Origin: Candidatus Iainarchaeum sp.
GTDB taxonomy: Archaea; Iainarchaeota; Iainarchaeia; Iainarchaeales; 1-14-0-10-31-34
NCBI GenBank assembly: GCA_017609625.1
Contig: JAFCDN010000001.1
Span: 3,230 to 67,229, forward strand
Reading direction: 5' to 3'
DNA length: 64,000 nucleotides
The number at the start of each line of letters is the position of its first letter. The first letter of the stretch is position 1. The notes beneath the pieces were generated by a model that did not search any database, was not told the DNA's origin, and saw nothing but the letters and a program-made list of their open reading frames with translations. A program made the translations under genes and the position numbers. Positions 383 through 61,670 of this stretch are shown piece after piece.

Positions 383-1156
383 TTGTTTAAAAACAAAAAA
401 AAACAATGTTTGTTAATGCTGCCTTTAGTAACTTATTCTGATTTAGCTAAGACTTATCCAAAGAATAATAAGCTGAAATTTGATAACAGAGTGAACTCTT
501 GGTTACCTTTATTTCCTTCTCCTGTTTTAGCAGGAATTGTTGCGGATTTGATGGCAGATGGCAACCTTTAAGGCCCTCCCAAATGGAGGTTTGACTATTG
601 TTCAAAACACTCTAAAGAATTGAACAGATTTGGAAACACAGTTTTTTCTGTATTTGGTTTAAAAGGAACAATTCGCCCCGGCACAACTAATAAATACAAC
701 ACTAAAAATTATGGTGTAAACTGCAGGCCTCTTGCAAAAACTTTGTTTTTGATAGGTGTTCCTTATGGAAATAAAGTATTGAAAAAATATTTAATCCCTA
801 ATTGGATTTTAAATGATAAAGATTGTTTTAGATTTTTTATTAGAAGATATTTTGATTGTGAACGTTCTATTGATTTAAAGAAAAAGTCCCTATCAGTTGA
901 GGTTCACAAATCAACAGAACTAATTGAAAACTCATTTGTTTTTCTTAATCAGTTTAAGCAGGGACTTCTCAAGCATTTTGATATAAAAACTATTAATCCA
1001 TTTAAATTGTCTTTGAAAGTGAAAAGAAAGTCAGGAGCGACAGTACAAGCCACAAGAATAAAAATCACAAGAAGAGAAAACATGGAAAAATTTTGTGCCG
1101 AAATAGGTTTTAACAGCAAGCTTAAAATGGAAAAGCTAAAATCAACCATATCTTAA
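383..1156 (+). pseudogene. Free-standing LAGLIDADG homing-endonuclease-like gene with one in-frame TAA (569-571)
   Basis: ORFs 383-571 and 620-1156 are in the same frame and the 16 codons between them are open (GPPKWRFDYCSKHSKE). Motif 1 LAGIVADLMADGNL; motif 2 FIRRYFDCERSI preceded by IPNWI; C-terminal F.AEIGF.SKLK. Likely start is ATG 416. Confidence 0.8.
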
Positions 1157-1195
1157 AAAACTTTCTTCCACCTAATTTTATGAGGTTGAGTCCCT

Positions 1196-1314
1196 GGGAA
1201 TTCTTCTAAGATTATTATTCATTATTGTTTTGGTTGAACCAGTGCGGTAGCTCAGCCTGGGAGAGCACACGGTTGAAGACCGTGGTGTCGTGGGTCCAAA
1301 TCCCACCCGTCCCA
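1196..1314 (+). tRNA. tRNA-Phe(GAA) with a predicted intron at position 4/5
   Basis: Anticodon stem CACGG/CCGTG with loop TTGAAGA; D arm GCTC/GAGC; T stem GTGGG/CCCAC. Joining exon 1 GGGA (1196-1199) to exon 2 (1245-1314) gives acceptor stem GGGACGG/CCGTCCC and discriminator A. Confidence 0.88.
1200..1244 (+). other. 45-nt tRNA intron bounded by a bulge-helix-bulge motif
   Basis: Central helix CTGG (1194-1197)/CCAG (1239-1242); bulges GA^A (1198-1200) and TG^C (1243-1245); inner helix TTC/GAA; outer helix CC/GG. Confidence 0.82.
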
Positions 1315-25664: not shown

Positions 25665-25785
25665 TTTAATAAAACAATTTATTGTAAGGATTTAGTATTT
25701 CTTATTTAAATTCTTTTGCTTTTAGAATTCCTTTCTTTTTCTTATAAAAAAGTGCTAAAAACACGCAGAATCAGCAAATAAAGAG

Positions 25786-26060
25786 TGTGGGCATGCTTTA
25801 AAGTCGAGTTAAAACAAAAAACAGAATTAGCCCTTAATTGCTCTCCCTTCCGTTGATCCCAAAAGCATTAAGCAGTAAAATTTCCGTTGCTTCCTTCCAG
25901 ATCTGGCGGGTTGGTTTTAAAACTTAATCTTAGGGGACAGAAGTTCATAGAAACAAACAAGGATTCTATTCTTTGGATTAAACCCTTCCCCAAAGCTTCG
26001 ACTCCTGCTAAAGCAGATTTCAGGTAACAGAGAACTGCTGACTCTCCAGCCTAGCCCACT
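25786..26060 (-). ncRNA. ffs: Archaeal SRP RNA (7S)
   Basis: Helix 8 SRP54-binding motif CCGCCAGATCT-GGAA-GGAAGCAACGG; helix 1 termini GTGGGC/GCCCAC; Alu-like 5' region; TTTAAA box about 25 nt upstream. Confidence 0.9.
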
Positions 26061-26126
26061 ATGAATTATTAAAAAAAAAGGTTTAAAAAGGTAAAAAACC
26101 TAATAAATAGTATTGAGGAGATTCTT

Positions 26127-59786: not shown

Positions 59787-61226
59787 CTATTTAATAATCC
59801 TTTCAGTTAAAAACTTTGGAGTGAATTCAATTAAATCCTCATATCCTTGTCCTGTGCCGACAAAAACAACAGGTTTCTTTAAAGCAGAAATCAAAGAAAT
59901 CGCGGTTCCGCCTTTTGCATCAGTGTCAATTTTAGTTAAAACAAAACCATCAAACCCAATCTTTTCACTGAATTCTTTTGCCTGTTCAAATAAGGAATTG
60001 CCTGACATTGCTTCTCCGACAAACAGTTTCAAATCAGGTTTAACTACTCTGTCAATTTTTTTCAGTTCATTCATTAAATTTATATTTGTTTCCTGCCTTC
60101 CGGCAGAATCAATTAACACTAAATCAATATCTTTTGCTTCTGCTGCCCTTACTGCATCAAATGCTACAGCAGCAGGGTCACTGCCATACTGGTGCTTTAC
60201 TAATCTTAAATTTAGTCTGTCTGCATGAACCTGAATCTGTTCAATTGAAGCAGCACGAAAAGTGTCTGCTGCAGCCAAAATAACTTTTTTTCCTTGCTTT
60301 TGAAATCTGAAAGCAATTTTTGCAATTGAAGTGGTTTTCCCTGCTCCGTTTGGCCCTAAAAAAAGTATTACAAAAGGCTTTTTGTTTTGAATTTTTTCTT
60401 CCAAAGGAATCTTTGGAACATCCATTAATCTTTCCAGAATCAAAGCAATTTCTTTTTTCAATCCTTCACTGACATTTTTTCCGTCAATTTCTTTTCCAAC
60501 AAGCTCTTTTTTGATTTCTTGCACGATTTTTGAGGCAGTTTGCTGTTCTACATCTGATTCCAGTAAAGCAAGTTCAAAGTCTTCCAGAAAATCGTTTACA
60601 TCTTTTTCTTCTATTTTAACTCTTCCGGTAAAAAACTTTTTTATTCCTGTTTTCAAAGAAACTTTTGCTTTTAGTTCTCTTTCTTTTAATAAATCCGAAT
60701 CAATTTTCTTTGAAACATCTTCTTCCAAATCTTTTTCTAATTCTTTTTCAAAAACTTCTTCGTGTTTTTCCTTTAAAACTTGTTTTTCTGCTTTTTCTTC
60801 AATTTTTATTTCAGCTTCTTTTTCAAACTCTTCTATTACTTCTTTTTTCTCTTTTTCTAATTCTTTTATTATTTTTTCATCTTTTTGGTCAAGCTTTTTC
60901 TCTGAAAAAACTTGTTTTTCTGCATTTTCTTCTAATTCAATTTTTTTTTCAAGCTCTTCTTTTTTTTCTGTTTCTTTTATTTCTGCTAAAACTTCTTTTT
61001 CTTCTTCAGTTAAATCTTCTGTTAATTCTCTTTCTTCTTCTGTTTTTTGTTCAACCTTTTTTTCTAAAAAAGGTTGTTTTTCTGCTTCAATTCTTTCCAG
61101 AACTTCTTCTTTTGGTTCTTCAATTGCTTTTTCTTCTTCTCTTAGAATTTGTTCTTCTTTTTTTTCCAGTTTGCCTTTAACTTTTTCAGTGAAAGAATCA
61201 ATTTTTTTCTTTAAGAAATTGAACAT
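59787..61226 (-). CDS. ftsY: SRP receptor FtsY with long acidic N-terminal domain
   Basis: GPNGAGKTT, DTFRAA, DSAGRQ, TKIDTDAKGG, GTGQGY. Confidence 0.96.
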   Translation of the reverse strand: MFNFLKKKIDSFTEKVKGKLEKKEEQILREEEKAIEEPKEEVLERIEAEKQPFLEKKVEQKTEEERELTEDLTEEEKEVLAEIKETEKKEELEKKIELEENAEKQVFSEKKLDQKDEKIIKELEKEKKEVIEEFEKEAEIKIEEKAEKQVLKEKHEEVFEKELEKDLEEDVSKKIDSDLLKERELKAKVSLKTGIKKFFTGRVKIEEKDVNDFLEDFELALLESDVEQQTASKIVQEIKKELVGKEIDGKNVSEGLKKEIALILERLMDVPKIPLEEKIQNKKPFVILFLGPNGAGKTTSIAKIAFRFQKQGKKVILAAADTFRAASIEQIQVHADRLNLRLVKHQYGSDPAAVAFDAVRAAEAKDIDLVLIDSAGRQETNINLMNELKKIDRVVKPDLKLFVGEAMSGNSLFEQAKEFSEKIGFDGFVLTKIDTDAKGGTAISLISALKKPVVFVGTGQGYEDLIEFTPKFLTERIIK

Positions 61227-61235
61227 GAAAATCAG

Positions 61236-61670
61236 TTACTGCTCTTTCCTTGCTTCCTGTGCTTTCTGCACTATCTGGCTTAAAGCATTCATATTTGCAT
61301 AAATTGCTTGCTGTTGTTTGCTTAATTCTTCCAGTTTTCCCTGTGCTTCTTTTTCTTTTTCTTCTAATTGTGCTATTGAATCATCTATTTTTGATTCAAC
61401 TATTATATTTCCCGGAAGACTTGTTTTTACTTTTGTTTTTTCATCTATTTTTATTTGCAAAAAAATTCCTACTCCTAAAGAAACCATTGCCTGGTCTCCT
61501 TTCTTGGTTTTTTTCACTTCTTTTAGGGCTTCTCTTGCAAAAAATATTTCTTCCATTAATCCTTGCACTGAAGCAATGCTTCTCTGAATTGATTCTAATT
61601 TTGCTTTTTCTCCTGTTAAAGCATTAACTATCTGCTGTCCGTTTAAGGTAACAGTTTTTTGTTCAGCCAT
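61236..61670 (-). CDS. pfdA: Prefoldin alpha subunit
   Basis: Coiled coil-beta hairpin-coiled coil with VSLGVGIF; conserved operon position. Confidence 0.88.
   Translation of the reverse strand: MAEQKTVTLNGQQIVNALTGEKAKLESIQRSIASVQGLMEEIFFAREALKEVKKTKKGDQAMVSLGVGIFLQIKIDEKTKVKTSLPGNIIVESKIDDSIAQLEEKEKEAQGKLEELSKQQQAIYANMNALSQIVQKAQEARKEQ

Follow-up and report, generated by a model that had tools for sequence, protein, structure and literature searches.

A predicted strict BHB intron at position 4/5 of the only tRNA-Phe gene found in a Micrarchaeota-like archaeon

Introduction

[quoted passage not shown] 2008) are presented in a review as an extreme case of intron placement (PMC4090602), and introns can, according to a paper from 2025, occur in several tRNA regions including the acceptor stem (PMC12397907). 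In Candidatus Micrarchaeum (ARMAN-2), a three-unit epsilon2 EndA of 387 aa has broad specificity, the motifs are relaxed, and some tRNA introns occupy the non-canonical sites 53/54 and 59/60; the accessible part of that article reports no acceptor-stem intron in ARMAN-2 (PMC3239211). A plain single-unit EndA is reported to require a strict motif (PMC3239211, PMC5829648). In the DPANN archaea, incomplete tRNA sets were taken by Kaneta et al. as a hint of undetected disrupted genes (PMC5829648). In Asgard archaea, a 2026 preprint describes up to five introns per tRNA gene, with strict BHB motifs and often missed by standard annotation; a few of these introns are said to be in the acceptor stem, and they are summarised in its supplement. 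Among tRNA finders, tRNAscan-SE 2.0 adds 60-nt flanks in order to catch introns near tRNA ends (PMC8450103). The order of processing steps has been measured in M. kandleri, in which end trimming comes before intron removal (PMC3695527).

Here we analyse a tRNA-Phe(GAA) gene located in a 64,000-nucleotide stretch of archaeal DNA (the window; unprefixed coordinates refer to it, and the features of the gene are on its forward strand). Based on the sequence and on modelled folds, we assign a probability of roughly 0.85 to the reading that this single tRNA-Phe(GAA) gene carries a functional, cis-spliced archaeal BHB intron at position 4/5. The kind of intron is already known; what is rare is the position. 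As with the Thermoproteales introns at 3/4, the intron would lie in the 5' strand of the acceptor stem behind a very short first exon, and by geometry the motif there must also use the leader, so that splicing would precede 5' maturation. Here the intron is one base further in (4/5), in a tRNA-Phe and in a Micrarchaeota-like (DPANN) lineage, and the genome encodes a single homotetramer-type EndA, in contrast to the heterotetramer of Crenarchaeota. With ARMAN-2 this organism shares the broad lineage, many intron-bearing tRNA genes and the use of non-canonical sites, whereas its genus has a 171-aa single-unit EndA and the introns resolved here have strict motifs. Split and circularly permuted tRNA genes (PMC3218864, PMC4033280) likewise build the BHB from non-tRNA sequence and are spliced before end maturation, but the candidate described here is a simple cis intron that involves neither trans-splicing nor permutation. 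Compared to the Asgard genes, the phylum is different and the four introns found below in the tRNA-Phe gene of a sister species are no record, five being described there. The order of processing proposed here, splicing and then trimming, is the reverse of the M. kandleri order. Word searches, in which the string '4/5' is not searchable and whose scope excludes supplements, returned no report of a 4/5 intron or of an intron in a Micrarchaeota tRNA-Phe.

Results

The genome harboring the locus is archaeal, comprises 1.35 Mb in 70 contigs with 32.7% G+C and is rated 91.7% complete. ARAGORN reported 45 tRNA genes, among which it predicted introns in 22 and assigned a single gene to tRNA-Phe, and the Rfam tRNA model yielded 37 matches. 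The presence of further tRNA-Phe genes was assessed with ARAGORN, with Rfam and via BLAST using the locus as query, and no second one was found in this 91.7%-complete genome. BLAST also detected no second copy of positions 1180-1250 in the genome, the longest off-target match being 15 nt. The original prediction held that standard finders could easily miss the gene, and this was not the case: on the unspliced locus ARAGORN and the Rfam tRNA model both give a tRNA at 1241-1314, with what would be the wrong 5' end and with a low Rfam score (48.8 bits).

When the gene is read contiguously from position 1241, the 5' strand AGTGCGG (1241-1247) opposes CCGTCCC (1307-1313) with two mismatches (A1:C72 and U3:C70) and a wobble (G4:U69), which is, base for base, the defective acceptor stem that had been described from the sequence. 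Excision of positions 1200-1244 joins GGGA (1196-1199) to CGG (1245-1247) and results in seven Watson-Crick acceptor pairs out of seven, the perfect stem that had been anticipated from this join, and ARAGORN identifies the spliced form as tRNA-Phe(GAA). Exon 1 therefore would consist of the four nucleotides GGGA at 1196-1199 (tRNA positions 1-4), as delimited by the sequence, a boundary scan and ARAGORN; the intron, of 45 nt, would span 1200-1244, based on the sequence, the boundary scan and the folds; and exon 2 (tRNA positions 5-73) would extend from 1245 to 1314, with the anticodon GAA at 1275-1277 and A1314 as discriminator. The CCA end is not encoded, and the discriminator is directly followed by a run of seven T (1315-1321), a likely transcription stop, since oligo-T acts as an archaeal terminator. 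On the 5' side, a TATA-like box (TTAAAAAA, 1153-1160), read from the sequence and presenting 7 of 8 bases in common with the sister species, is the putative promoter of the pre-tRNA, and its position suggests a transcription start at about 1183 and hence a predicted leader spanning 1183-1195, which the folds also delineate. This box is located 43 nt upstream of exon 1 and 88 nt upstream of position 1241; in relatives with an intact gene, similar TTTAAA-type boxes lie, as read by eye, approximately 33-35 nt upstream of the tRNA. The upstream regions of the 45 tRNA genes gave no firm promoter spacing rule from this genome alone, because they are too varied and many of them present hairpin modules and not a clear box.

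The leader, exon 1, the intron and the start of exon 2 can be arranged into a strict hBHBh' motif in which every base of the originally proposed helices and bulges was recovered. The outer helix h is formed by the pairs C1192-G1247 and C1193-G1246 (2 bp, the shortest length that still qualifies as strict), the central helix H by CUGG at 1194-1197 and CCAG at 1239-1242 (4/4 pairs, all Watson-Crick), and the inner helix h' by UUC at 1201-1203 and GAA at 1236-1238 (3 bp), so that h and h' both contain at least two contiguous pairs; the two bulges, GAA at 1198-1200 and UGC at 1243-1245, are of 3 nt each. As had been proposed, the four-nucleotide exon 1 relies on leader positions 1192-1195 for part of this structure: 1192-1193 are the 5' strand of h, and 1194-1195 are the first half of the 5' strand of H, with U1195 being the base that precedes the predicted RNase P site. 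Within exon 1, G1196 and G1197 supply the second half of that strand, and G1198 and A1199 are bases 1-2 of the 5' bulge, which is completed by A1200 of the intron. Besides the 3' strand of H (1239-1242), the intron contributes U1243 and G1244 as bases 1-2 of the 3' bulge and has an inner hairpin of its own, in which 1206-1210 pair with 1229-1233. In exon 2, C1245 is base 3 of the 3' bulge and is followed by G1246 and G1247, which serve as the 3' strand of h. In addition, pairing between leader positions 1183-1191 and 1250-1258 is predicted to prolong the outer helix by 9 bp, past a 2-nt bulge, as far as the D-arm region. The involvement of the leader is not a new principle, because any intron so near the 5' end needs it.

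The T-loop of the gene (1295-1301) reads TCCAAAT, which places a C at 1296, corresponding to position 55. Position 55 is nearly always U (pseudouridine 55). The tRNA-Phe genes of 7 of 22 relatives, as well as those of the sister species and of one further member of the genus (G002), also have C55, and the other tRNAs of this genome that were inspected have TTC where the tRNA-Phe T-loop has this C.

Intron boundaries were evaluated by scanning all pairs of a first intron base within 1100-1240 and a last intron base within 1240-1247. Two pairs restore a fully paired acceptor stem, and only one of them, 1200/1244, also presents a BHB motif; the other, 1199/1243, restores the stem but has 0/4 central pairs and was discarded. 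In mononucleotide shuffles of the 141 upstream bases, a stem-restoring boundary with a strict BHB arose in 53 of 100,000 cases, a control in which G-U pairs were allowed, the real motif being Watson-Crick only. Applying the same rule to the whole genome, 271,374 strict-BHB candidates were obtained, 29 of which yield an ARAGORN tRNA across the junction. The junction lies at most 8 nt from the tRNA 5' end in 12 of these, distributed over 9 genes, and among the 12 acceptor pairs are gained only in tRNA-Phe (from 5 to 7 of 7), with one candidate staying at 7 and ten losing pairs. As an internal control, the classifier placed the introns of Gly-CCC, Asp-GTC, Leu-CAA, Leu-TAA and Pro-TGG at the canonical 37/38 site, three bases after the anticodon start.

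Three other classes of explanation for the disrupted gene were considered and rejected. A self-splicing group I or group II intron does not fit the 45-nt length, given ribozyme cores of at least about 200 nt, and Rfam matches only the tRNA here. A split or permuted tRNA gene does not fit two exons (1196-1199 and 1245-1314) that follow each other in collinear order on the same strand, with 45 nt between them. A tRNA pseudogene is at odds with the lack of a second tRNA-Phe among the matches of the searches described above, with the conservation of leader and motif in the sister species and with a compensatory change in the T-stem, both of which are presented below.

The minimum free energy (MFE) structure obtained with RNAfold contains the motif in the absence of any constraint (-42.9 kcal/mol, z = -2.4), with 4 of 200 shuffles folding as well. 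For the precursor 1183-1314, the MFE structure is the BHB conformer (-46.8 kcal/mol), and forcing the acceptor stem raises the energy to -34.2 kcal/mol. The conformers carrying the motif and the acceptor stem are mutually exclusive because G1196-G1197 and G1246-G1247 pair in one or the other, and the gap of 12.6 kcal/mol favours the former. The spliced 74-mer has the cloverleaf as its MFE structure (-35.2 kcal/mol), whereas the contiguous 74-mer folds without an acceptor stem (-25.1 kcal/mol).

These results suggest a pathway that would begin with a precursor of about 130 nt, transcribed from about 1183 to the T-run after 1314. Pairing of the leader with the last part of the intron and the first bases of exon 2 would give the strict hBHBh' motif, keeping the acceptor stem blocked. 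A homotetramer-type EndA would then cut after the second base of each bulge, at 1199|1200 and 1244|1245, and RtcB would ligate GGGA to CGG, the 45-nt intron being probably circularised. Only then could the acceptor stem, with its seven pairs, and the cloverleaf be established, after which RNase P would remove the leader at U1195|G1196. An earlier cut by RNase P would cost the motif its outer helix and two of its four central pairs, which leads to an order with splicing first and trimming second. That splicing precedes RNase P cleavage, as the original prediction had also reasoned, is thus a sound inference from the geometry and the modelled folding energies.

The machinery for such a pathway can be recognised in the genome. 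A single EndA was found, a protein of 171 aa encoded on contig C38 (locus L031, 1273-1788) that matches PF02778 and PF01974, and its residues 4-171 align without gaps to the homotetrameric M. jannaschii enzyme (1a79). In the five genomes of the genus that were searched, each has a single EndA match (5/5), with open frames of 137-183 aa, the 137-aa frame running into the end of its retrieved locus. RtcB (594 bits) and an archaeal RNase P RNA (116 bits) are also present. Comparison with four solved EndAs (5x89, 1a79, 1r0v/2gjw and 4fz2) aligns Thr148, within residues 145-150 (NIKTKL), with the Lys of the SVRK/NVRK stretch, which we take to be the catalytic lysine. This Thr is flanked by Lys147 and Lys149 and occupies the same column in all five EndAs of the genus. 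The lysine may have moved by one residue, or the alignment may create this impression; the EndA of this organism may be unusual.

A variant of the pathway in which the intron is real and the order is not fixed, so that RNase P could act first and EndA could work on a truncated or relaxed motif, is improbable. It would have a precedent in M. kandleri, where trimming was measured to come first (PMC3695527); the precursor could adopt the acceptor-stem conformer, at -34.2 kcal/mol; and in DPANN archaea, greater disruption of tRNA genes accompanies homotetramer-type EndAs that have an extra loop (PMC5829648). The EndA found here, in contrast, shows no inserted residues when compared to the strict enzyme of M. 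jannaschii, the cut at 1195|1196 would remove the outer helix together with half of the central pairs from a precursor in which the BHB conformer is the more stable by the gap given above, and the entire leader part 1180-1195 is conserved in the sister species (16/16 identical).

Conservation of the predicted intron was next analysed across relatives; within the order, the succession of genes Lys-TTT, Lys-CTT, Phe is widespread. ARAGORN detected tRNA-Phe in 22 of 29 loci from relatives, and the acceptor stem, as read by eye, is uninterrupted in all 22; six of these needed a one-base shift of the ARAGORN ends, and one has a single C:A mismatch. Among the five relatives from the same genus, one, the sister species (G004), has a 4/5 intron too, of 32 nt. 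Positions 1180-1203 are identical between both species in 24 of 24 bases and positions 1236-1244 in 9 of 9 (33/33 for leader and motif), with the motif parts of the intron being identical in 13/13 positions and its interior in 12/32 (7 mismatches and 13 gaps). Identity amounts to 13/19 in the adjacent segment 1161-1179, to 73% in the upstream region and to 81% in the DNA of a neighbouring protein gene. Since the two species are relatives, part of the motif identity is shared ancestry. Of what had been expected from an alignment of orthologous loci, the pairing of the motif is thus retained in the sister species, but covariation within the 4/5 motif was not found in the two carriers, which are identical there. 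When both precursors are folded to a consensus, the motif is retained, as is the 9-bp helix 1183-1191/1250-1258, an extension that in the sister species is predicted to compete with the motif of its 18/19 intron. In the inner hairpin of the intron there is one compensatory change between the two species (C-G to U-A), and the T-stem also differs by a compensatory change, which indicates that tRNA-Phe has been kept under selection in both species. Searches of genome contigs with the exact 5'- and 3'-junction strings matched only the record of the sister-species type, and the 3'-junction string was also found in one metagenome contig, whose aligned part shows no difference from that record. A gapped pattern with the inner helix left free returned the same record and three bacterial loci devoid of a tRNA, which were taken as chance matches and discarded.

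These comparisons bear on the reading of the gene as a decaying tRNA-Phe that starts contiguously at 1241 and whose pairing with upstream sequence is coincidental, which we consider quite unlikely. ARAGORN and Rfam do both report 1241-1314 as a tRNA, and the motif is without covariation. A second copy could moreover be hidden in a genome rated 91.7% complete. ARAGORN missed the four-intron gene of the sister species outright. Conversely, the contiguous form has two acceptor mismatches and no cloverleaf fold, none of the three search methods returned another tRNA-Phe, and the chance rate in shuffled sequences is low (53/100,000). The identity of leader and motif (33/33, versus 73-81% for the flanks) and the T-stem change are likewise unexpected under decay, and the TATA-like box would lie 88 nt before the start of the tRNA. 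A last reading, in which the 45 nt are a recent insertion scar or an assembly artefact and no working tRNA-Phe arises from the locus in either species, would draw on the mobile-DNA history that a degenerate LAGLIDADG-like gene directly upstream in both species lends to the region, and is highly improbable given that the same arrangement occurs in two separate assemblies and in the metagenome contig, that no similar intron copy exists elsewhere in the genome (best off-target BLAST match, 15 nt), that the boundaries fit the cutting rule exactly and that phenylalanine codons would be unreadable without this tRNA. The strict BHB intron at 4/5 hence is the preferred reading.

Under this reading, the tRNA-Phe genes of the genus differ markedly in their introns. 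No intron was found in the tRNA-Phe gene of two members (G003 and G005); two others, G001 (locus L023) and G002 (locus L019), have one 44-nt intron at 18/19, with a strict motif and compensatory changes in its inner helix; the genome analysed here has the 45-nt intron at 4/5; and the sister species has four introns, located in locus L015 at 1550-1581 (4/5, 32 nt), 1597-1641 (18/19, 45 nt), 1654-1700 (30/31, 47 nt) and 1708-1723 (37/38, 16 nt). All four present a 4/4 central helix and 3-nt bulges, and the outer helix of the 37/38 motif has only 1 bp until the 30/31 intron is excised. ARAGORN misses the unspliced gene of the sister species and identifies its spliced form as tRNA-Phe.

Other tRNA genes of the genus also have introns at these sites. 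The tRNA-Lys(CTT) gene of the sister species presents two, at 30/31 and 37/38 (L015 550-579 and 587-607), and a 42-nt intron with a strict BHB is located at 30/31 of tRNA-Met(CAT) in the genome analysed here (C6:20079-20120). Two genes called by ARAGORN as tRNA-Ser(AGA) and tRNA-Ser(GGA) become tRNA-Asp(GTC) and tRNA-Pro(TGG), respectively, after BHB splicing of canonical introns (contig C5, minus strand, reverse-complement coordinates 61113-61241; and C2:11266-11303). Among the 22 introns called by ARAGORN in this genome, only 9 have a strict hBHBh' near the ARAGORN boundaries. A two-level strict-BHB search over 7,256 spliced variants, derived from these 22 genes and from two partial Rfam matches, resolved some genes only, and most of its solutions excise hairpins inside the ARAGORN intron. 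Long predicted introns of 87-172 nt for which no strict-BHB solution was obtained occur in the genes for Trp, Thr-TGT, Gly-GCC, Ser-GCT, Tyr, Asn, Arg-TCT and Arg-CCT, and may hide several introns or relaxed motifs. No gene at all was detected in this 91.7%-complete genome for Glu-TTC, Gln-CTG, Ala-GGC, Arg-GCG or Arg-CCG.

Discussion

The interest of the tRNA-Phe gene resides in the rare position of its predicted intron, in the processing order that this position would force, in the plain single-unit EndA that would perform the splicing and in the turnover of introns within one genus. [quoted passage not shown] (PMC5829648). With only four exon bases before the intron, the predicted splicing signal would be gone once the leader is removed, so that the usual maturation order would have to be reversed, and this reversal would concern one essential tRNA. 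The case would also support the idea that a plain single-unit EndA requires nothing beyond a strict motif, irrespective of where in the tRNA the motif lies.

The presence of zero, one or four introns in the same gene among six close relatives makes the gene usable for the study of intron gain and loss. Taken at its broadest, the proposal is that a genus whose only EndA is of the homotetramer type, lacks the extra specificity loop and has a Thr between two Lys at the column of the presumed catalytic lysine nevertheless splices strict BHB introns at four or more sites of one tRNA (4/5, 18/19, 30/31 and 37/38), that the 4/5 intron forces an order opposite to that of M. kandleri and that the genus is a natural system for intron gain and loss; we see even odds that this holds as a whole. 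If true, the genus would test whether the strictness of the motif alone, and not position or enzyme type, decides what an archaeal EndA is able to cut.

The surroundings of the gene present several additional features. A LAGLIDADG-like frame at 383-1156 (plus strand) lies between the tRNA-Lys(CTT) and tRNA-Phe genes and ends 40 nt before exon 1. It scores 22.3 bits against Pfam LAGLIDADG_3, just below the cut-off of 22.5, and contains an in-frame TAA at 569-571, where the sister species has Gln; the frame of the sister species starts only at what we take to be its first LAGLIDADG-like motif. Judging by its sequence, the region 383-1156 has the appearance of a homing-endonuclease gene in decay.

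Short hairpin modules in this genome cluster strongly around tRNA genes, where they occur immediately before or after the gene or within its long intron. They belong to three types: GCACGnn...nnCGTGC, AACTTTT...AAAAGTT, and AAACGGCGAAACGTTT preceded by GTGCTC. Matches at most 80 nt from, or inside, ARAGORN tRNAs make up 32/90, 60/284 and 10/34 of the total for the three types in turn, in counts that include palindromes twice and against tRNA zones that represent about 1% of the genome by a rough estimate. No module was found within the 4/5 intron of tRNA-Phe. Examples are located at 258-305 in the window, at C13:6237-6305, at C40:14900-14966, in the tRNA-Trp intron on the minus strand of contig C2 and at C58:10100-10172. 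The third type also precedes the apparent start of the 23S rRNA, as read by eye, and some apparent coding sequence. Further along the window, an archaeal SRP RNA matches Rfam RF01857 at 25785-26061 on the minus strand (122.3 bits) and is an ordinary feature.
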